Below are positions 10,147-19,404 of a stretch of DNA of 64,000 bases, piece after piece. Every line of letters begins with the position of its first letter. The first letter of the stretch is position 1. Both the position numbers and the translations under genes were made by a program. Below the pieces are notes generated by a model. It saw only the letters and a list, made by a program, of their open reading frames with translations, ran no database searches and had not been told where the DNA came from. Where the stretch lies: assembly GCF_988243305.1 (NCBI RefSeq), contig NZ_OZ547136.1. One strand, given 5' to 3'.

Positions 10147-10418
10147 GTATTCGTATTGAAATTGGCGAACGTTATGTCGTTACCAGTGACAGCTTTCAGT
10201 TTATTCTCCACGAGAAAAAGAGAGCGGAAAGCGGTAAAAACGCCGGTCAGGAATGGCTGGCGGTGGTTGGTTATTACCCGAAATTAGGCCAGCTCGTTTC
10301 CGGCCTGATGCATCACGATATTCTGACCGGAAGCGCAAAATCTTTTGCTGATTTAAACGCGCAGGTTGAGCAACTCAGCAAGCGTTGTTCAGAGGCTTTT
10401 GGCTCATATGGCCGTTAA
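10143..10418 (+). CDS. hypothetical early protein (P2 orf83 position)
   Basis: 91-aa track ORF coupled to its neighbours by overlapping start and stop codons. Confidence 0.65.
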   Translation: MSIRIEIGERYVVTSDSFQFILHEKKRAESGKNAGQEWLAVVGYYPKLGQLVSGLMHHDILTGSAKSFADLNAQVEQLSKRCSEAFGSYGR

Positions 10419-12684
10419 AGCCTCCGGGCGTTTTGTCCCTCCGTCAGCATTTACCGCAGGCACCGGTAAGGCGTTTACCGGTGCTTATGCATGGAACGCG
10501 CCACGCGAGGATGTCGGGCGCGAAAGACCTCTTACACGTGACGAGATGCGTCAGGTGCAAGGTGTTTTATCCACGATTAACCGCCTGCCTTACTTTTTGC
10601 GCTCGCTGTTTACTTCACGCTATGACTACATCCGGCGCAATAAAAGCCCGGTGCACGGGTTTTATTTCCTCACATCTACTTTTCAGCGTCGTTTATGGCC
10701 GCGCATTGAGCGTGTGAATCAGCGCCATGAAATGAACACCGACGCGTCGTTGCTGTTTCTGGCAGAGCGTGACCACTATGCGCGCCTGCCGGGAATGAAT
10801 GACAAGGAGCTGAAAAAGTTTGCCGCCCGTATCTCATCGCAGCTTTTCATGATGTATGAGGAACTCTGCGATGCATGGGTTGATGCGCATGGTGAAAAAG
10901 AATCGCTGTTTACGGATGAGGCGCAGGCTCACCTGTATGGTCATGTTGCTGGCGCTGCACGTGCTTTCAATATTTCCCCGCTCTACTGGAAAAAATACCG
11001 TAAAGGACAGATGACCACGAGGCAGGCATATTCTGCCATTGCCCGCCTGTTTAACGATGAGTGGTGGATTCATCAGCTTAAAGGCCAGCGTATGCGCTGG
11101 CATGAGGCGTTACTGATAGCTGTCGGGGAGGTCAATAAAGACCGTTCTCCTTATGCCAGTAAACACGCCATTCGTGATGTGCGTGCGCGCCGCCAGGCAA
11201 ATCTGGAATTTCTTAAATCGTGTGACCTTGAAAACAGGGAAACCGGCGAGCGCATCGACCTTATCAGTAAGGTGATGGGCAGTATTTCTAATCCTGAAAT
11301 TCGCCGGATGGAGCTGATGAACACCATTGCCGGTATTGAGCGTTACGCCGCCGCAGAGGGTGATGTGGGGATGTTTATCACGCTGACCGCGCCGTCAAAG
11401 TATCACCCGACACGTCAGGTCGGAAAAGGCGAAAGTAAAACCGTTCAGCTTAATCACGGCTGGAACGATGAGGCATTTAATCCAAAGGATGCGCAGCGTT
11501 ATCTCTGCCGTATCTGGAGCCTGATGCGCACGGCATTCAAGGATAATGATTTACAGGTCTACGGTTTGCGAGTCGTCGAGCCACACCACGACGGAACGCC
11601 GCACTGGCATATGATGCTTTTTTGTCATCCACGCCAGCGTAACCAGATTATCGAAATCATGCGTCGCTATGCGCTCAAAGAGGATGGCGACGAAAGAGGA
11701 GCCGCGCGAAACCGTTTTCAGGCAAAACACCTTAACCGGGGCGGTGCTGCGGGATATATCGCGAAATACATTTCAAAAAACATCGACGGCTATGCACTGG
11801 ATGGTCAGCTCGATAACGACACCGGCAGGCCGCTGAAAGACACTGCAGCGGCTGTTACCGCATGGGCGTCAACGTGGCGCATTCCGCAATTTAAAACGGT
11901 TGGCCTGCCGACAATGGGGGCTTACCGTGAACTACGCAAATTGCCTCGCGGCGTCAGCATTGCTGATGAGTTTGACGAGCGCGTCGAGGCTGCACGCGCC
12001 GCCGCAGACGGTGGTGATTTTGCGCTGTATATCAGCGCGCAGGGCGGGGCAAATGTCCCGCGCGATTGTCAGACTGTCAGGGTCGCCCGTAGTCTGTCGG
12101 ATGACGTTAACGAGTACGAGGAAGAAGTCGAGAGAGTGGTCGGCATTTACGCGCCGCATCTCGGCGCGCGTCATATTCATATCACCAGAACGACGGACTG
12201 GCGCATTGTGCCGAAAGTTCCGGTCGTTGAGCCTTTGACTTTAAAAAGCGGCATCGCCGCGCCTCGGAGTCCTGTCAATAACTGTGGAAAGCTCACCGGT
12301 GGTGATACTTCGTTACCGGCTCCCACACCTTCTGAGCACGCCGCAGCAGTGCTTAATCTGGTTGATGACGATGTTATCGAATGGAATGACCCGGAGGTCG
12401 TGAGGGCGCTCAGGGGCGCATTAAAACACGACCGGAGAACGCCAAACCGTCAGCAAAGAAACGGAAGCCCGTTAAAACCGCATGAAATTGCACCATCGGC
12501 CAGACTGACCCGGTCGGAACGATTGCAAATTACCCGTATCCGCGTTGATCTCGCTCAGAACGGTATCAGGCCGCAACGATGGGAGCTTGAGGCGCTGGCG
12601 CGTGGCGCGACCGTAAATTATGACGGGAAACCTTTCACTTATCAGGTCGCTGATGATTGGCCGGGATTTTTGTTACCCATTTGA
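10408..12684 (+). CDS. A: P2 A-like rolling-circle replication initiation endonuclease
   Basis: Track ORF 10366..12684. The P2 gpA N-terminus MAVKASGRFVPPSAF starts at 10408. Contains the HUH-type motif EPHHDGTPHWHMMLF and the active-site YIAKYISK tyrosines. Confidence 0.93.
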   Translation: MAVKASGRFVPPSAFTAGTGKAFTGAYAWNAPREDVGRERPLTRDEMRQVQGVLSTINRLPYFLRSLFTSRYDYIRRNKSPVHGFYFLTSTFQRRLWPRIERVNQRHEMNTDASLLFLAERDHYARLPGMNDKELKKFAARISSQLFMMYEELCDAWVDAHGEKESLFTDEAQAHLYGHVAGAARAFNISPLYWKKYRKGQMTTRQAYSAIARLFNDEWWIHQLKGQRMRWHEALLIAVGEVNKDRSPYASKHAIRDVRARRQANLEFLKSCDLENRETGERIDLISKVMGSISNPEIRRMELMNTIAGIERYAAAEGDVGMFITLTAPSKYHPTRQVGKGESKTVQLNHGWNDEAFNPKDAQRYLCRIWSLMRTAFKDNDLQVYGLRVVEPHHDGTPHWHMMLFCHPRQRNQIIEIMRRYALKEDGDERGAARNRFQAKHLNRGGAAGYIAKYISKNIDGYALDGQLDNDTGRPLKDTAAAVTAWASTWRIPQFKTVGLPTMGAYRELRKLPRGVSIADEFDERVEAARAAADGGDFALYISAQGGANVPRDCQTVRVARSLSDDVNEYEEEVERVVGIYAPHLGARHIHITRTTDWRIVPKVPVVEPLTLKSGIAAPRSPVNNCGKLTGGDTSLPAPTPSEHAAAVLNLVDDDVIEWNDPEVVRALRGALKHDRRTPNRQQRNGSPLKPHEIAPSARLTRSERLQITRIRVDLAQNGIRPQRWELEALARGATVNYDGKPFTYQVADDWPGFLLPI

Positions 12685-12943
12685 GTAAAAATACAGCGTG
12701 ATTTTATATGTCTTTGAATGGATTATGCGAAACACCTCTAAGGTAGATGAGGAGCAATAGCGTGTTGAATCAGAAGGCTAAATTGTATTGAATCGTTAGC
12801 ATGTAATTGAAGGCAGCTATTTGATTCGAGTCATAAAAGAGCATCTATTTCGGTTAATAAAACCATTGCGAGTGACTTTATGTCGAAGCATAATTCATCT
12901 CGAGCGAAGTCTTGCTAGTCTTTCATCGGATTGATGACGGGCG

Positions 12944-12975
12944 CAAAAAAACCACCCTGGCAGGTGGTTTTTTTG
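12944..12975. terminator. bidirectional intrinsic terminator
   Basis: A7-ACCACC-ctggca-GGTGGT-T7. The A-run and T-run flank the stem, so it can terminate transcription from either side. Confidence 0.75.
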
Positions 12976-12986
12976 TTTGAAGCATA

Positions 12987-13100
12987 CTAAAGAAAAATAC
13001 TTACATGGATATTACTGACGTTTACTGACAAACCACTCGGACTACCATATGGATAGCCAAAGAGGGCCAGAACGAGAATGCAGTAATAGCACTTCTTCAT
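12987..13100 (-). CDS. 37-codon hydrophobic mini-ORF (candidate small membrane/toxic peptide)
   Basis: Below the track's length cut-off. The minus strand reads AGGAGG-cgat-ATG AAG AAG TGC TAT TAC TGC ATT CTC GTT CTG GCC CTC TTT GGC ... TAG, giving MKKCYYCILVLALFGYPYGSPSGLSVNVSNIHVSIFL. The bidirectional terminator lies 12 nt after its stop. Confidence 0.45.
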   Translation of the reverse strand: MKKCYYCILVLALFGYPYGSPSGLSVNVSNIHVSIFL

Positions 13101-13822
13101 ATCGCCTCCTGTAAGCAGAGGGCAATTTCCGCCGATATATGCGCTTCTAAGGCGGAGTGACTATTGAGCGAAGTCTTGCCCTGAAATAATGCTCTGTTTA
13201 AACGCAAAGTGATCTGGCATATCACCGAACAGAGGACCTGAACAACACAACATATAGTATGTCGTTGTTTCTGGTTGCATTTTATGTTGTGTAATACTGG
13301 TTTTGCATCAAGGATGTTTGAGCTTTTTTTGATATAGCTCAAAGTAAAAAGCAGAGACTACGGATGATAAGGTCTTGAAAGCAATGTAAATTTTTTAAAG
13401 TTGTGAGTGGCTAGAAATGCACAGTTTCAATATGGCGGATTTAAACAAGTAATTAAAAATAGCGACACAAATTCCAATAAAATCATTAAGTTGCGTTTTC
13501 TGTGGAAACTTCGGTGACTCTGAAATTTTCTTTTAGTATCGCTGAGGTTTAACAACTCGCTGCGCAAGTAGTTAGTGTTTTTTTTAACTCAATATTCTGA
13601 TTTATAAGGTTTTTTATAAATCGTGGGCTGGTTGCGCATATTCATCTCGTGTTATCAGCAAAGATAAGCTCTATATGCAGAACTGAATGCATATATGATG
13701 TCGAAAATGTTATGGGAAAACGTGGATTAGTGTTATAGTAATGGCTGAAAAACAGCCTTGACATAAAATAACAACTGTGATATGGCTGTGCATACTTAAC
13801 TTTTTTAACGTAGGAGGCAACC

Positions 13823-14308
13823 ATGAGCTATGCAGCTAAAAAACTGCTTGACCGCTATTGGGATCGCCGACTACCTGTCGATCCGTTTAAGCTTGCTAAA
13901 GCGTGGGGTGCTCGTGTTGAAGCACTTGAGGAATCGGCTTATAACAACGATGGGTTAAGCGGTCTGGCTGTCATCAAAAAGGGTGTCCATAGGATTTATT
14001 TTGATTCTAGTGAACATTCTAATCGTCAACGTTTTACTGTTGCACACGAGTTAGGTCATCATGTGCTGGGGCATACCCAGGACGGAGAGTACCATCGGGA
14101 TAATGTCGGGAATTATTCAACAGGTGCTCGTGATTACCGTGAGGTTGAAGCAAACAAGTTTGCTGCTGAGTTGTTAATGCCTGAGTCTGCTATACGTCAA
14201 TTGGTATCCAGAGAAGGTATTGATAGCACTTTGAGATTAGCAAGCATCTTTAATGTATCAGAAGCCGCTATGCATTGGCGCTTAAAGAGCTTAGGAATGG
14301 CTTATTAA
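13823..14308 (+). CDS. ImmA/IrrE-family (Peptidase_M78/DUF955) zinc metallopeptidase
   Basis: 161-aa track ORF with AGGAGG 5 nt upstream. HEXXH motif in FTVAHELGHHVLGH, followed by EVEANKFAAELLMPE, the characteristic third-ligand/helix block of the family. Confidence 0.85.
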   Translation: MSYAAKKLLDRYWDRRLPVDPFKLAKAWGARVEALEESAYNNDGLSGLAVIKKGVHRIYFDSSEHSNRQRFTVAHELGHHVLGHTQDGEYHRDNVGNYSTGARDYREVEANKFAAELLMPESAIRQLVSREGIDSTLRLASIFNVSEAAMHWRLKSLGMAY

Positions 14309-14335
14309 TTAGCCTTTAACTTTTAACCTGTTTAA

Positions 14336-14374
14336 AATCACCTTTACGTTTGTACATGTAAGGGTGATTTTTTT
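14336..14374 (+). terminator. hairpin plus T7 between the peptidase gene and the 2-TM gene (terminator/attenuator that covers the downstream RBS)
   Basis: AATCACCTTTA (14336-14346) pairs with TAAGGGTGATT (14359-14369) over 11 bp, including one G-U. T7 runs directly into ATG 14375. The 3' arm contains the only SD-like AAGGGTGA for the next gene. Confidence 0.6.
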
Positions 14375-14974
14375 ATGGCTGATATTGATTTATCTGGACA
14401 GTCCCCAGAGCAAGGAACCACTCCTAAGGGCGATTTAGATCCTGATATCCTTATAAGGCGAGATAGACGGGATGGTATAGAGCGTAGAAGTATGCGATTA
14501 GTGCTCTCTGCCGTTGTGCTTTGTTTTGCTTGTACATTTCTATGGCAGGGGCTTAACTTTGCTTTGGCTGTTGGAAATGGCTTGCTGGAAGCGAAAAGCA
14601 GTATTGCCGCAGCGATAACACAAAAAGTAGATACACAAACTTGTGTTTCAGCAGAAAAATGTTCTGCTTTATCTTCGGATCCGAAGATGGCTGATGAGAG
14701 GATAACACCATCTTCAGACACTAATAAAGTTAGAAAATCTATTTCTGGTTTATCCACCGATTGGTTATCGGCCAGTTCTCTAATAGCTATTGTTGCATTC
14801 ATCCTTGGTGTGGGTTTAACTTTGCTTTTGACTCTTCTTAAATCAGCATTTCAACACCCGACAGATAAAGACTTTAGAACAAAGTCGACATCTAATACTA
14901 TTGAGTTGGCCACGCCAATCAGTGAATTAATAATTGGTGTTCTGAATATAATTAAAGACAAACTATCTAAGTAA
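14375..14974 (+). CDS. hypothetical two-transmembrane-helix protein
   Basis: 199-aa track ORF. Charged N-terminus, then hydrophobic helices LVLSAVVLCFACTFLWQGLNFALAV and LIAIVAFILGVGLTLLLTLL. I recognise no family. Confidence 0.65.
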   Translation: MADIDLSGQSPEQGTTPKGDLDPDILIRRDRRDGIERRSMRLVLSAVVLCFACTFLWQGLNFALAVGNGLLEAKSSIAAAITQKVDTQTCVSAEKCSALSSDPKMADERITPSSDTNKVRKSISGLSTDWLSASSLIAIVAFILGVGLTLLLTLLKSAFQHPTDKDFRTKSTSNTIELATPISELIIGVLNIIKDKLSK

Positions 14975-15016
14975 AGCATTAGTTGTGATTTTTTATTGGT
15001 TTTAGTGATAATACAT

Positions 15017-15049
15017 CTCCAGTACTTATTGTTACTGGAGAGTATTTTT
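15017..15049. terminator. hairpin between convergent genes
   Basis: CTCCAGTA-cttattgt-TACTGGAG followed by agTATTTTT. Lies between the stops at 14974 (+) and 15057 (-). Confidence 0.65.
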
Positions 15050-15056
15050 AGTCGTT

Positions 15057-15998
15057 TTATATTTTTAATGTTAGTGAATGATATTCACGAGAGTTCACGT
15101 TCGATGTGATGTAATCGGGGGCGTTAACACCAAGAATCGCAACGAGTAATCGGCAAATTAAAGCCTGCATTTGTTGTAATATGTCATCTCCATATTGATA
15201 ATTGTTAATAGTGGTAAAGCCAAGTGGTTGACCATGAAACATAGCTTCATGAAAGTTTTCATTGCGGATGTTTGTAATGTTTTTTTTACCTGTAACCCAT
15301 GATGGTCGTGGTATTCCATAAGTTTTGCAGATCCACTTCAAGCGCCTGGAGTGATTTAGAGTCTTTTCTGTACACTTGTTCTTTTCTGCCCATGTTAAAG
15401 CAAAGCAACTATCCAGTGCCATATAAAGATACTGGAATTTTTCGAAGCTAAGGTATTGTGGGTTTTGGGATAAAAATAGTGCATGCACTATTGCTGCTAT
15501 ATTTATTGGTGCGTGTTTGGTTTTTGTCTCGCTAGACATGTATTTGAGTGCTAATTCTATAACCTCTTTTTCAGAGCACTTGACCAGAATAAAGTCAGTT
15601 AATTTGCTGGGTTTTATTGGGGTTGCGTCTAAAAAACCGGCATCAGTAGTTGTTAATCTTATCCCTTTGAAAAAAGACAGACACCACACAGCAAAATTGA
15701 GAGTTTCTAGTGAAGATGTATTTTTTAATTTTAGTGAGTGTGTTTTGGGTAAGCCAAATACTCGTTGGCTAAAAGGCATTGTGGATATGCCTCCATTGAG
15801 GTTATATACTTCTTGGTTTCCTGGGTATATCCAACCGTTAATAACATTTCTGTGATTGTTTATAAGATTTGTTTTTTCCGCTAGACCGGGTAAAGTAAGT
15901 AAAGAAAAATCATCAGTTTCAACGTTAACTTCTACTGGATAGTATCCAAACTCAGCTTCAATATCATTGGATTGCTGTTCGTCAACTTTACCTTGCAT
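15057..15998 (-). CDS. hypothetical 313-aa protein with a C-terminal HEPN-like RNxxxH motif (candidate abortive-infection RNase)
   Basis: Track ORF with GGAG 8 nt upstream of the ATG. The codons CGC AAT GAA AAC TTT CAT at 15266..15249 encode RNENFH (R245-H250) in a predicted helical C-terminal region. AT-rich codon usage unlike the rest of the prophage. Confidence 0.6.
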   Translation of the reverse strand: MQGKVDEQQSNDIEAEFGYYPVEVNVETDDFSLLTLPGLAEKTNLINNHRNVINGWIYPGNQEVYNLNGGISTMPFSQRVFGLPKTHSLKLKNTSSLETLNFAVWCLSFFKGIRLTTTDAGFLDATPIKPSKLTDFILVKCSEKEVIELALKYMSSETKTKHAPINIAAIVHALFLSQNPQYLSFEKFQYLYMALDSCFALTWAEKNKCTEKTLNHSRRLKWICKTYGIPRPSWVTGKKNITNIRNENFHEAMFHGQPLGFTTINNYQYGDDILQQMQALICRLLVAILGVNAPDYITSNVNSREYHSLTLKI

Positions 15999-16424: not shown

Positions 16425-17459
16425 TCAGCCGTTGTCGGTGTCCAGTGAGTAGTTTTTAAAGCGGATGACCTCCTGACCGAGCCAGCCGTTTATCTCGCGG
16501 ATCCTGTCCTGTAACGGGATAAGCTCATTGCGGACAAAGACCTTTGCCACTTTCTCAATATCACCCAGCGACCCGACGTTCTCCGGCTTGCCGCCCATCA
16601 ACTGAAAAGGGATGCGGTGCGCGTCCAGCAGGTCTGCGGCGCTGGCTTTTTTGATATTAAAAAAATCGTCCTTCGTTGCCACTTCACTGAGCGGGATAAT
16701 TTTAATGCCGTCGGCTTTCCCTTGCGGGGCATAGAGAAACAGATTTTTAAAGTTGTTGCGGCCTTTCGACTTCACCATGTTTTCGCGGAGCATTTCGATA
16801 TCGTTGCGATCCTGCACGGCATCAGTGACGTACATGATGTATCCGGCATGTGCGCCGTTTTCGTAATACTTGCGGCGGAACAGCGTGGCCGACTCATTCA
16901 GCCAGGCAGAGTTAAGGGCGCTGAGATATTCCGGCAGGCCATACAGCTCCTGATTAATATCCGGCTCCAGCAGGTGAAACACGGAGCCGGGCGCGAAAGG
17001 TGTCGGCTCATGGAAGGACGGCACCCACCAGTAAACATCCTCTTCCACGCCACGGCGGGTATATTTTGCCGGTGAGGTTTCCAGTCTGATGACCTTACCG
17101 GTGGTGCTGTAACGCTTTTCCAGAAACGCATTACCGAACACCAGAAAATCCAGCACAAAGCGGCTGAAATCCTGCTGGGAAAGCCACGGGTGCGGAATAA
17201 ACGTTGAAGCCAGAATATTACGTTTGACGTAAATCGGTGAGCTGTGATGTACGGCAGCACGCAGGCTTTTTGCCAGACCGGTAAAGCTGACCGGTGGCTC
17301 ATACCATCTGCCGTTACTGATGCACTCGACGTAATCCAGAATGTCACGGCGGTCGAGTACCGGCACCGGTTCACCAAAGGTGAATGCCTCCATTTTCGGG
17401 GCGCTGGCGGTCATTTTTTTTGCCGCAGGTTGCGGTGTTTTCCCTTTTTTCTTGCTCAT
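16425..17459 (-). CDS. Q: portal protein
   Basis: 344-aa track ORF, the same length and position as P2 gpQ. Adjacent to cos and coupled to P. Confidence 0.93.
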   Translation of the reverse strand: MSKKKGKTPQPAAKKMTASAPKMEAFTFGEPVPVLDRRDILDYVECISNGRWYEPPVSFTGLAKSLRAAVHHSSPIYVKRNILASTFIPHPWLSQQDFSRFVLDFLVFGNAFLEKRYSTTGKVIRLETSPAKYTRRGVEEDVYWWVPSFHEPTPFAPGSVFHLLEPDINQELYGLPEYLSALNSAWLNESATLFRRKYYENGAHAGYIMYVTDAVQDRNDIEMLRENMVKSKGRNNFKNLFLYAPQGKADGIKIIPLSEVATKDDFFNIKKASAADLLDAHRIPFQLMGGKPENVGSLGDIEKVAKVFVRNELIPLQDRIREINGWLGQEVIRFKNYSLDTDNG

Positions 17460-19231
17460 TAGTAAAACTCCAGAATGGTGGATGTCAGCGGGGTGCTGAT
17501 ACCGGCGGTGAGTGGCTCATTTAACAGGGCGTGCATGGTCGCCCAGGCGAGATCGGCGTGGCTGGCTTCCTCGCTGCGGCTGGCCTCATAGGTGGCGCTG
17601 CGTCCGCTGCTGGTCATGGTCTTGCGGATAGCCATAAACGAGCTGGTGATGTCGGTGGCGCTGACGTCATATTCCAGACAGCCACGGCGAATAACGTCTT
17701 TTGCCTTGAGCACCATTGCGGTTTTCATTTCCGGCGTGTAGCGGATATCGCGTGCGGCGGGATAGAACGAGCGAACGAGCTGGAACACGCCGACACCGAG
17801 GCCGGTGGCATCAATTCCGATGTATTCGACGTTGTATTTTTCGGTGAGTTTGCGGATGGATTCAGCCTGGGTGGCAAAGTCCATGCCTTTCCACTGGTGA
17901 CGCTCAAGTATTCTGAATTTGCCACCGGCCACCACCGGCGGTGCCAGCACCACGCATCCGGCACTGTCGCCACGGTGTGACGGGTCGTAACCAATCCAGA
18001 CCGGGCGGGAGCCGAACGGATTCGCGGCAAACGGCGCATAGTCTTCCCATTCTTCCAGCGTGTCGACCATGCAGCGTTGCAGCTCCTCGAACGGGAACAC
18101 CGACGCCTTGTCGTCAACAAATTCACACATGAACAGGTTTTTAAAATCGTCGGCGCTGTTTTCGCGTTTAAGCTGCTCAATGTCGAACAGCGTGCAGCCA
18201 CCTTTCAGGGCGTCCTCAATGGTGACAATCTGCCGCCACTGACCGTCCGCACAGAGAAGCCCACCGGCAAGAGCGTTATGACTGACGTCGATTTCCACGC
18301 GTTCGGCGGCGCTGGCGCGTCCCCGGTTGAACAGTTCACCCGACCAGAACGGGTAGGCGTCGTGCGCCAGCGTGGACGGGGTGGAGAAATAGGTCGAGCG
18401 CAGGTGACTCTGTGAGGCCATACCTGATGCCACCTTACGCAGTACCTGAAAATTCGGTATCCAGAAAATCTCGTCGACGTACAGGTCGCCGTTATGGCTC
18501 TGCGCGGTGTTGGAGTTGGTGCCGAGAAAAATCAGTTTTGCGCCGTTATTGCCCAGGACAATTGGGTCACCGGTCAGGTCAACGTCAACCAGCCGGGCAA
18601 AGGCGATGATGTATTCGCGGAACACATACGCCTGCGTTTTACTGGCCGACAGAAAAATCTGGTTATGACCGGTTTTCAGGGCGCGCAGCAGCGCCTCGCG
18701 GGAAAAATAAAACGTCGCGCCAATCTGGCGGGATTTCAGGATATCGCGGATGCGGTGCTCAAGCCCTGCGCGATACCAGTGCAACTGATATTCGAAAGAC
18801 TGCTCAAAGAAAATCTGCTCCAGCTTTTCGATGGCCTCGTCACTGAAAAAATTCTTTTTCGGTTTGCGACGCCCGCCTTTGTTGCGGTTAGCGACGTTCG
18901 GATTAAAGTCTGCCTCGTTGCCGGTCTGACTGTAACGGTTGACCCGTGCCAGTCGTTCAATCTGGCGTCCGAGCAGGTCAATTTCCTTGAAGTCACCGCC
19001 GGTTTTCTGCGGTTTGATGATGAGCTGGGTCAGCCGCGCTTCCAGACTCATTTCGACACGGCTGATGGGGGCAACGCTGTCCCAGCCGTCGCGCTGTTTC
19101 CAGCTCTGCACCGTCGGGCGTTTCATCTGCAACATGGCGGCAATCTGCGGCACGGAAAATCCCTGCCAGTACAGCAGCGCCGCCTGACGACGCGGGTCGT
19201 GTAAAAGAGTGGTGTCTGTGGTGATGGTCAT
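17459..19231 (-). CDS. P: terminase large (ATPase) subunit
   Basis: Track ORF 17459..19261. The P2 gpP N-terminus MTITTDTTLLHDPRRQAALLYWQG starts at 19231, giving 590 aa. Confidence 0.93.
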   Translation of the reverse strand: MTITTDTTLLHDPRRQAALLYWQGFSVPQIAAMLQMKRPTVQSWKQRDGWDSVAPISRVEMSLEARLTQLIIKPQKTGGDFKEIDLLGRQIERLARVNRYSQTGNEADFNPNVANRNKGGRRKPKKNFFSDEAIEKLEQIFFEQSFEYQLHWYRAGLEHRIRDILKSRQIGATFYFSREALLRALKTGHNQIFLSASKTQAYVFREYIIAFARLVDVDLTGDPIVLGNNGAKLIFLGTNSNTAQSHNGDLYVDEIFWIPNFQVLRKVASGMASQSHLRSTYFSTPSTLAHDAYPFWSGELFNRGRASAAERVEIDVSHNALAGGLLCADGQWRQIVTIEDALKGGCTLFDIEQLKRENSADDFKNLFMCEFVDDKASVFPFEELQRCMVDTLEEWEDYAPFAANPFGSRPVWIGYDPSHRGDSAGCVVLAPPVVAGGKFRILERHQWKGMDFATQAESIRKLTEKYNVEYIGIDATGLGVGVFQLVRSFYPAARDIRYTPEMKTAMVLKAKDVIRRGCLEYDVSATDITSSFMAIRKTMTSSGRSATYEASRSEEASHADLAWATMHALLNEPLTAGISTPLTSTILEFY

Positions 19232-19404
19232 GAATACCTCGCCGTGATGAATACACGGCAAGGCTACTGAGTCGCGCCCCGCGATTCGCTAAGGTGCTGT
19301 TGTGTCAGTGATAAGCCATCCGGGACTGATGGCGGAGGATGCGCATCGTCGGGAAACTGATGCCGACATGTGACTCCTCTAATCACTATTCAGGACTCCT
19401 GACA

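Follow-up and report, generated by a model that had tools for sequence, protein, structure and literature searches.

A stand-alone M78 peptidase and a two-helix membrane protein form a conserved mobile gene pair, a candidate toxin-antitoxin-type module

The gene pair described here lies in a P2-like prophage within a 64,000-nucleotide stretch of contig NZ_OZ547136.1 (NCBI RefSeq assembly GCF_988243305.1), which we call the window. The first gene encodes a zinc peptidase of the M78 family. The second starts exactly 66 nucleotides (nt) after the peptidase stop codon and encodes a predicted inner-membrane protein with two transmembrane (TM) helices, hereafter the 2-TM protein. A terminator-like hairpin, which contains the only Shine-Dalgarno (SD)-like sequence of the second gene, occupies the end of the gap. 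The features of the pair are as follows.

13823..14308, plus strand: stand-alone single-domain M78 (ImmA/IrrE-type) zinc peptidase of 161 amino acids (aa), Pfam PF06114
14045-14059, plus strand: HELGH motif, read from the sequence
14141-14143, plus strand: putative third zinc ligand E107, read from the sequence
14334..14371, plus strand: terminator-like, SD-sequestering hairpin of 16 bp including an A-U extension, from folding and covariation
14334-14349 with 14356-14371, plus strand: pairing arms of this hairpin, with a 6-nt loop at 14350-14355, from folding
14360..14367, plus strand: SD-like AAGGGTGA of the 2-TM gene in the 3′ arm of the hairpin, the best anti-SD site
14368..14374, plus strand: T7 run between the core stem and the start codon, abutting both
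14375..14974, plus strand: 199-aa two-TM predicted inner-membrane protein, orphan family phrog_8096, from hydrophobic segments
14387..14398, plus strand: D-L-S-G short linear motif, residues 5-8 in the disordered N-terminal tail, from motif enrichment
~14486-14572, plus strand: TM1, ~residues 38-66, from hydrophobicity
14492-14494, plus strand: internal Met40 within an ERRxMR motif, read from the sequence
~14750-14854, plus strand: TM2, ~residues 126-160, from hydrophobicity

The 161-aa protein at 13823-14308, which a first-pass annotation of the bare letters had picked out by its HEXXH motif, is by sequence a genuine member of the M78 family. Peptidase_M78 (PF06114) matches it with E=3.8e-21 and 75.6 bits against a cut-off of 22. 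The sequence contains AHELGHHVLGH and EANKFAAELLMPE, and residues H75, E76, H79 and E107 are invariant in nine peptidase sequences down to 43% identity. A profile search reaches the structures of IrrE and CapP in the PDB, and the PHROG assignment is phrog_87, ‘metallo-protease’. In a 99.8%-identical copy, the protein at the matching position is RefSeq WP_000119270, an ImmA/IrrE family metallo-endopeptidase. The gene is also, as judged from sequence comparison, under purifying selection; the window copy and that of phage P2DC1 (locus L002) differ at 105 nt but at only 20 aa, and the proteins are 88% identical.

The M78 HExxH peptidase fold is common to this protein and to the enzymes of the ImmA-ImmR, IrrE-DdrO and CapP-CapH pairs, and ImmA is likewise a single-domain enzyme of ~170 aa. 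These enzymes cleave an adjacent helix-turn-helix (HTH) repressor, whereas no such gene stands beside the window peptidase or in most related loci. An HTH was sought in all open reading frames (ORFs) of at least 40 aa over ~1.1 kb upstream or downstream, and none was found; Pfam matches none of the three small ORFs (46, 60 and 81 aa) that flank the pair. According to Pfam and the sequence itself, the peptidase carries no HTH, no GAF domain and no cysteine, and its chain ends at residue 161 with the peptidase domain. IrrE and CapP possess HTH and GAF domains and sense single-stranded DNA in the groove between domains, and CapP also has a cysteine switch (PMC13228613). Since the window peptidase has neither the GAF/HTH groove nor a cysteine, neither this mode of sensing nor the CapP switch can apply to it. 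In PADLOC the best match is capP (1e-30), covering only profile positions 8-153 of 242, and 15 RmrA models match as well, through their peptidase part only (e.g. positions 146-267 of 363). The missing XRE/HTH neighbour thus stands as first noted. The arrangement is not unprecedented, since M78 proteins have other partners in the membrane-depolarising variant of RosmerTA (PMC10440598), and PADLOC has an M78-containing model, PD-Lambda-2_B, and a Beta-protein model, PD-Lambda-2_C.

The second gene occupies 14375-14974 and encodes the two hydrophobic helices that had been proposed for it. Many public gene calls, as well as Table S2B of Rousset et al., place the start at the internal Met and give one TM helix. 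With that start the N-terminal tail and its motif are cut off and too few TM helices are counted. The conserved upstream reading frame, the motif and the geometry of hairpin and ATG argue for a start at 14375 with two TM helices, which corrects the earlier gene model. A dual start was considered and is not supported: the internal Met occurs in 16 of 19 loci, but no consistent SD sequence goes with it.

The 2-TM protein has no relative in Pfam, NCBIfam, PADLOC or the PDB, and its PHROG family is unannotated. The family is small, with 55 matches in 5.8 billion clusters and, among 1.84 billion representatives, 57 clusters at 50% identity; none of these 57 clusters contains a fusion of peptidase and 2-TM protein. 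A scan of species-representative genomes with one 2-TM alignment pattern matched 9 stretches, of which 0 were confirmed, and these genomes are evidently without close copies. The AlphaFold2 (AF2) model has a mean pLDDT of 63, with helices at residues 23-89, 116-159 and 180-198, and its best Foldseek match in the PDB has E=1.8. Identity as a holin was examined and rejected. Sub-threshold matches to Phage_holin_3_6 were obtained for 4 of 47 family members, no more than to other generic membrane families, and for three partner proteins. Furthermore, the cassettes sit in cargo positions, on plasmids and in islands without lysis genes; an endolysin neighbour was seen only in an Aeromonas Mu-like prophage (L032, 3419-5810), where the cassette lies between the genes for a Mor regulator and a GH108 endolysin.

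Conservation within the family is uneven. TM2 (AFILGVGLTLxLTLLK) hardly varies between E. coli and Acinetobacter, TM1 retains FLxxGL, and the C-terminus forms a conserved amphipathic helix. The N-terminal tail and the loop between the helices are hypervariable in length and sequence. Basic residues flank both TM helices on their N- and C-terminal sides; by the positive-inside rule, the protein would adopt an N-in/C-in topology with both tails in the cytoplasm, alongside the peptidase. Within the variable N-terminal tail a short motif stands out. D-[LFYMI]-[SAG]-x, often DLSG followed by xxP, is present in 56 of 89 dereplicated tails, where shuffles predict 8.8; this enrichment is somewhat inflated because the motif was defined after viewing the data. 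The mini 2-TM proteins that accompany distant peptidases have it too, and alongside the juxtamembrane (E/D)RRxMR it offers the best candidate site of contact with the peptidase.

The contrast between a hypervariable loop and tail and conserved TM helices could also be read as the mark of superinfection exclusion. The periplasmic loop would then block DNA entry or another envelope step without killing the cell, and the peptidase would tune or process the 2-TM protein. HK97 gp15, T4 Imm and P22 SieA are small inner-membrane prophage proteins that act by exclusion, and the cassette has the location of a prophage moron. In addition, near-identical cassettes differ by 5 nt and 3 aa in the 2-TM gene and by 0 nt in the peptidase gene, and the narrow specificity of such a protein would account for the negative result with a panel of eight phages that is described below. 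However, in many family members, the mini versions among them, the loop measures only 4-12 residues, and a loop of so few residues cannot be the core functional element. Exclusion also leaves unexplained why the 2-TM protein is strictly coupled to a catalytically intact cytoplasmic peptidase, and why such peptidases pair elsewhere with exonucleases and Beta proteins. We therefore regard exclusion as quite unlikely.

Evidence for a functional unit comes from the conservation of the pair. The first-pass annotation had made its interpretation depend on the two genes being neighbours elsewhere, and they are. In all 16 IMG/VR loci with a 2-TM gene an M78 peptidase lies directly upstream, and a peptidase of 161-164 aa does so in every other 2-TM neighbourhood examined: a Pectobacterium phage remnant, a Serratia island, an Enterobacter plasmid, recombinase islands of Vibrio harveyi and V. 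parahaemolyticus, and a satellite-like element of Acinetobacter baumannii. Peptidase relatives of 42-51% identity are followed by a 2-TM protein in Aeromonas, Klebsiella grimontii, Pseudomonas aeruginosa and Maridesulfovibrio. A scan of species-representative genomes from the peptidase side, in which 80 distant loci of 33-48% identity were kept, extends the range further. A small 2-TM partner (119-256 aa) is present in at least 15 of the 80 and, where identity reaches 41% and the locus was assessable, in 11 of 13. Single-domain M78 peptidases as a whole occupy at least 531 loci in GTDB representatives. These loci (at least 15) span Alpha-, Beta-, Gamma- and Deltaproteobacteria and one Acidobacterium, and their small 2-TM genes usually overlap the peptidase stop codon by 4-17 nt. 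On this comparative evidence, peptidase and 2-TM protein are a conserved mobile two-gene unit. Its contexts comprise P2-like, Mu-like and lambdoid prophages, satellites, plasmids and chromosomal islands, and it is present in ~1% of complete E. coli genomes.

Several of these contexts resemble a defence hotspot. The plasmid-borne copy adjoins genes for a Zeta toxin, an HNH protein and a YobI-ATPase. In Acinetobacter baumannii (L013, 2184-6714 and 10923-12714) the cassette is found at the cargo end of the satellite-like element, after the genes for a DUF927 primase and SSB, and adjoins cas1, csy4 and csy3 (Pfam names), which we read as a type I-F CRISPR-Cas locus. The Serratia island (L006, 8463-10246) carries a canonical RosmerTA-like pair, a 223-aa protein of unknown function and a 371-aa protein with HTH_3 and Peptidase_M78, 1.8 kb downstream of the cassette, so that two M78-based modules share one island.

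In a Pseudomonas aeruginosa prophage (L033/L034, 3007-4934) a mini version, a 170-aa peptidase and a 135-aa 2-TM protein separated by 13 nt without a hairpin, lies directly downstream of an S24 cI-like repressor gene on the same strand, an arrangement that recalls rexAB beside cI in lambda. This neighbourhood, like the family precedent of ImmA, IrrE and CapP, would suit a peptidase that acts in trans as an anti-repressor: it would cleave an HTH repressor encoded elsewhere, while the 2-TM protein would anchor or regulate it and so link a membrane signal to induction. We consider this account highly improbable. No HTH gene is adjacent in the window or at most loci, the border of the cassette lies only ~120 nt upstream of the peptidase gene, and a fixed target in trans is unlikely because the cassette occurs in unrelated elements with different repressors or none.

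The distant loci further reveal that the 2-TM protein is not the only partner of this peptidase family. In 8 of them the peptidase is accompanied on the same strand by an SbcB-type exonuclease (RNase_T and Exonuc_X-T_C; PADLOC RTasSbcB, E=6e-111), and in 6 by a Beta protein (PF14350; PADLOC beta and PD-Lambda-2_C). Loci with an exonuclease or Beta partner are L055-L065 and L082, and L073, L075, L077, L088, L096 and L109; the partner usually overlaps the peptidase stop codon. The peptidase-exonuclease pairing may represent an undescribed two-gene system. Given the 2-TM, SbcB-like and Beta partners, the stand-alone peptidase is a hub with interchangeable partners, a property that fits the idea of a membrane effector. 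The ImmA-domain antitoxins of RosmerTA have the same property (Ernits et al. 2023, PMC10440598).

We now turn to the intergenic hairpin. The 11-bp stem at 14336-14369 that had been recognised at the outset, with its T7 run at ATG 14375, proves to be the core of a 16-bp hairpin at 14334-14371. Relative to dinucleotide shuffles the fold is markedly stable: -25.1 kcal/mol with z=-4.4 in a 101-nt context, and -18.4 kcal/mol with z=-6.4 in the 45 nt before the ATG. The early remark that the only SD-like sequence lies within the 3′ arm is likewise borne out. The best anti-SD site of the 2-TM gene (GUAAGGGU, -17..-10) has an energy of -5.0 kcal/mol, and 8 of its 8 nucleotides are paired. By comparison, the peptidase gene has an SD site of -10.2 kcal/mol that is invariant (GTAGGAGGCAACCATG) and open.

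An equivalent hairpin is present in 13 of 14 distinct spacers from divergent loci (z -2.8 to -7.6). In these 13 the stem has 9-16 bp and ends 2-4 nt before the ATG, and the SD-like site is 86-100% paired. A U-run of 5-8 is kept in all hairpin-bearing loci except L030, where it is weaker. Because a MAFFT alignment of all hairpins misplaced the arms of the Vibrio loci and L030, covariation was assessed on an in-register subset, and per-sequence statistics were used for all spacers. In the in-register alignment, 92.7% of cells pair and both sides change in 6 of 16 pairs. The covariation score was reached by 0 of 500 shuffles, and slid controls were 31-67% paired. The stems fall into three unrelated families at the same position: TCACC.../...GGTGA in Enterobacterales, GCCCTCA/TGAGGGC in Vibrio, and GCCACC/GGTGGC in Aeromonas, Klebsiella and two distant viral loci. 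By this comparative evidence the hairpin is, within one large branch of the family, a conserved RNA structure with compensatory changes. It is absent in Acinetobacter, where the gap is 30 nt and AT-rich, and in every mini version, with genes that abut or overlap each other. No hairpin is present either in Pseudomonas, Maridesulfovibrio and many Beta- and Alphaproteobacteria, for which gene overlaps of 4-17 nt are reported.

Stems that include an SD sequence are known to limit or time translation, as in the sdi stem-loop of lambda S and the hairpin over the ribosome-binding site of T4 gene e. The window hairpin resembles these in being a stable, SD-including stem directly upstream of the gene for a small, putatively membrane-active protein. 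It differs in its canonical U-run, and no alternative structure, dual start or internal promoter has been demonstrated for it. The window hairpin has the form of an intrinsic (Rho-independent) terminator, with a G-C-containing core stem followed by U7. A simple terminator scanner listed the Vibrio and Aeromonas equivalents (L010, L031) as terminator-like and did not list the window hairpin, probably because the A/U stem extension uses up its T-tail. An RNA thermometer was considered and rejected: the 13-16 bp stems have -13 to -20 kcal/mol and the 9-bp stems -11 to -15, values that we take as too stable for melting at physiological temperatures. The first-pass annotation had proposed conditional gating by terminator read-through and unmasking of the ribosome-binding site. 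The sequence suggests constitutive damping by the hairpin; nothing in it points to conditionality, and no alternative (anti-terminator) structure was found in the spacer.

Since hairpin and U-run resemble an ordinary intrinsic terminator, the two genes could in principle be independent, with the hairpin ending the peptidase transcript and the 2-TM gene forming a separate unit, perhaps from a weak promoter that abuts the hairpin. At 14333-14338 and in seven other loci a -10-like hexamer (TAAAAT, TAGAAT, TACAAT) indeed abuts the 5′ arm, so that 8 of 15 loci have TAnAAT there, where 2.1 would be expected. A transcript from this hexamer would lack the 5′ arm and leave the SD sequence free. However, only two related clades have these hexamers, their -35 elements are poor, and the A/U extension of the stem is a confounder that can explain them; an internal promoter is a weak lead. 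Moreover, adjacency and gene order are kept across phyla, and the 4-17 nt overlap in many relatives implies co-translation. Independence of the two genes is thus very unlikely.

A close counterpart among characterised systems is RosmerTA, in which toxins of diverse kinds are joined to a Zn-peptidase antitoxin (Millman et al. 2022 preprint). The RosmerTA toxin of Gordonia phage Kita depolarises the membrane, and the system protects from no more than two BASEL phages (Ernits et al. 2023, PMC10440598). In three Pectobacteriaceae strains rmrA is essential. Like RosmerTA, the cassette is a two-gene module of mobile elements and prophages in which an M78 protein is joined to a swappable partner without a known domain. 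In addition, at least one RmrT acts on the membrane, and gene order is variable in both. The differences are equally clear. RmrA has ~360-400 aa with an N-terminal XRE-type HTH followed by the peptidase, whereas the window protein has 161 aa and the peptidase only; a terminator-like or SD-sequestering hairpin is undescribed for RosmerTA; and toxicity and defence are, for the window cassette, presumed. As neither an HTH partner nor the RmrA architecture was found, the cassette is neither RosmerTA nor an ImmA/ImmR-type pair. It is best filed, on sequence grounds, as an HTH-less membrane-effector variant of the ImmA-peptidase toxin-antitoxin/defence architecture, RosmerTA-like in kind.

Pairings of M78 proteins with Beta (PADLOC PD-Lambda-2_B/_C) present the peptidase as a shared defence-type module; the partner in the window is the 2-TM protein, not Beta. 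PD-Lambda-2, which is experimentally validated, consists of three genes with an M78 protein of ~400 aa (PADLOC profile length), against two genes and a 161-aa peptidase here. The gop-beta-cII system of P4 is also validated, and Gop has 2 TM helices (PMC9122126).

We tentatively favour, as plausible rather than probable, an HTH-less, RosmerTA-like module of the toxin-antitoxin type that causes abortive infection, with the peptidase as an antitoxin-like regulator. A self-contained two-gene cargo cassette, carried by phages, satellites, plasmids and islands, would comprise the peptidase as regulator and the 2-TM inner-membrane protein as effector, most likely one that disturbs the membrane. The peptidase would be produced in excess from its strong, open ribosome-binding site and would hold the 2-TM protein harmless by direct action on the cytoplasmic tail, with D-L-S-G and ERRxMR as candidate sites of contact or cleavage. 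The effector would be freed when infection supplies a cue that blocks or titrates the peptidase or stops its synthesis. In the branch formed by Enterobacterales, Vibrio and Aeromonas, the hairpin would lower effector synthesis both as a terminator and by occluding the SD sequence, and the peptidase-to-effector ratio would be high; we read the hairpin as setting this ratio in place of translational coupling. We infer the toxicity of the 2-TM protein, its physical or proteolytic coupling to the peptidase, the direction of control and the role in defence. The antitoxin-like direction is favoured by the genetics of RosmerTA, the predicted excess of peptidase and the lack of a sensor domain.

The reverse direction of control deserves consideration. 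The 2-TM protein could be an inert pro-effector whose cytoplasmic tail is cleaved by the peptidase, inactive until then, after a phage cue, whereupon it forms a pore and causes abortive infection by a logic like that of bacterial gasdermins activated by proteases. Every characterised M78 relative (ImmA-ImmR, IrrE-DdrO, CapP-CapH) is activated by a signal and cleaves the product of the neighbouring gene, the tails of the 2-TM protein are long and disordered with conserved short motifs, and low effector expression would limit accidental firing. On the other side, the peptidase has no sensor domain (GAF, HTH) and no cysteine switch, D-L-S-G lies at residues 5-16 so that cleavage there removes only a few residues, the M78 protein of RosmerTA is genetically the antitoxin, and no defence is recorded for pFR104, a cloned relative of the cassette that is described below. 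Activation by cleavage is a serious rival, though less likely than the antitoxin-like direction and rather improbable in itself.

The cassette has been noticed before. ‘Peptidase_M78 + hypothetical’ was catalogued in the P2 hotspot by Rousset et al. 2022 (PMC9122126), and the variant of strain TA280 was cloned with its native promoter as pFR104, ‘Peptidase + TM’ (Table S2B of the same paper). This is the same system: the L002 peptidase, 88% identical to that of the window, has the same sequence as protein 1 of pFR104. WP_000119270 appears at least 23 times in Table S5A of PMC9122126. The pFR104 listing takes protein 2 from the internal Met with ‘1 TM’ and includes neither hairpin, N-terminal motif nor any distribution beyond E. 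coli P2 phages. In the literature, of which journal coverage was incomplete, we found no paper that describes the hairpin, the N-tail motif or the family of HTH-less M78 peptidases with 2-TM proteins as such.

Several points weigh against the antitoxin-like module that we favour. pFR104 is listed in Table S2B among ‘additional tested systems’ rather than in Table S2A, ‘validated defense systems’, and when eight further systems of the P2 hotspot were challenged with eight phages, only three gave defence (PMC9122126). This negative test lowers the confidence in a defence role, and it is compatible with narrow specificity as in the Kita system. The 2-TM protein matches no RmrT model of PADLOC, a weak test given the diversity of RmrT families, and no known toxin or holin family. 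Among its relatives, those from Aeromonas, Hydrogenophaga and Pseudomonas sp. have no PADLOC match either, and that from P. aeruginosa has one marginal match to PglZ (E=2.6e-4). As ImmA, IrrE and CapP are signal-activated and cleave their partners, family precedent would favour activation over constitutive neutralisation. The hairpin is missing in many family members and is therefore a lineage-specific addition, not a core mechanism. Lastly, clpP is essential in E. coli E101 and TA054, where a related prophage toxin-antitoxin module makes it so, but it is not essential in TA280; as TA280 carries the cassette, a ClpP dependence of the RosmerTA type is not evident. The underlying CRISPR interference data on essentiality targeted core genes only and say nothing direct about the peptidase.

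If the antitoxin-like reading is correct, the pair would be a minimal form of ImmA-peptidase defence or toxin-antitoxin system, in which a peptidase domain without a DNA-binding or sensor domain directly controls a membrane effector. The known uses of M78 peptidases would widen from the cleavage of repressors to the control of effectors, and a cassette present in ~1% of complete E. coli genomes, together with related pairs elsewhere in the Proteobacteria, would gain a function. Experimental handles are available in the D-L-S-G tail motif, the juxtamembrane ERRxMR motif, the near-invariant TM2 and the covariation-supported hairpin. A broader view, which we judge unlikely, would make the HTH-less single-domain M78 peptidases a distinct and widespread class of immune regulators that act directly and post-translationally on effectors (2-TM membrane proteins, SbcB-like exonucleases and Beta proteins) instead of cleaving a transcriptional repressor, with D-L-[SAG]-x-G of the 2-TM partners as docking site or pseudo-substrate and the enterobacterial hairpin as an infection-responsive switch. 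In that case phage-induced antitermination or processing of the RNA could open the hairpin, or a transcript initiated within the 5′ arm could bypass it.

The surroundings of the pair complete the description. The interval between gpA and the portal gene is a variable hotspot for cargo and defence genes in P2-like phages, and P2 itself has old and tin there (PMC9122126). In the window prophage it holds the two-gene cassette on the plus strand and a convergent gene for a 313-aa protein.

10366-12684: replication gene A (Phage_GPA, E=4e-124)
13704..13822, plus strand: left border, predicted promoter and 5′ leader; homology to non-E. coli loci begins at ~13704
13758-13763, plus strand: -35 element TTGACA, followed by a 17-nt spacer
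13778-13786, plus strand: extended -10 element TGaTATGGC, read from the sequence
13812-13817, plus strand: strong, unstructured SD sequence AGGAGG of the peptidase gene, read from the sequence
15016..15041, no strand assigned: 9-bp-stem hairpin in the gap where the 2-TM gene and ORF313 converge, likely the 3′ terminator of the cassette; terminator-like on both strands and a listed inverted repeat
15057-15998, minus strand: ORF313, phrog_5937, of unknown function
16425-17459, minus strand: portal gene
17459-19261, minus strand: large terminase gene

Across the cassette alignment TTGACA, TGnTAAGGC and GTAGGAGGCAACCATG are kept. As homology with the non-E. coli copies starts at ~13704, the mobile unit would measure ~1.3 kb and consist of promoter, peptidase gene, spacer, 2-TM gene and terminator (15016-15041). 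ORF313 has no match in Pfam, PADLOC or NCBIfam, and it has the hairpin at 15016-15041 in common with the cassette. It equals the ORF313 of P2-EC67 (AM157369), which is cassette-free there and in Yersinia P2-like phages, and phage P2DC1 has the cassette without ORF313. Since each occurs without the other, ORF313 is an independent module.

Upstream of the cassette, an 81-aa ORF (13097-13342, minus strand) was considered as a hidden partner and rejected as a gene: its 7 substitutions show no bias to the third position, 5 of them alter the encoded amino acid, and Pfam has no match for it. Nothing in Rfam exceeded the gathering thresholds between 12600 and 16500. A sub-threshold RNAI-like match lies at 12943-13053 on the minus strand, in a non-coding block (12805-13400) that also contains an inverted repeat at 13236-13301. 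A perfect 13-bp hairpin with a T-run at 12944-12975 is probably the terminator of gpA. This block is 92-100% identical between the window and P2DC1, while the adjoining peptidase gene is only ~78% identical at the nucleotide level. It was seen only in records of cassette-carrying phages, yet it is absent from the non-E. coli cassette loci.

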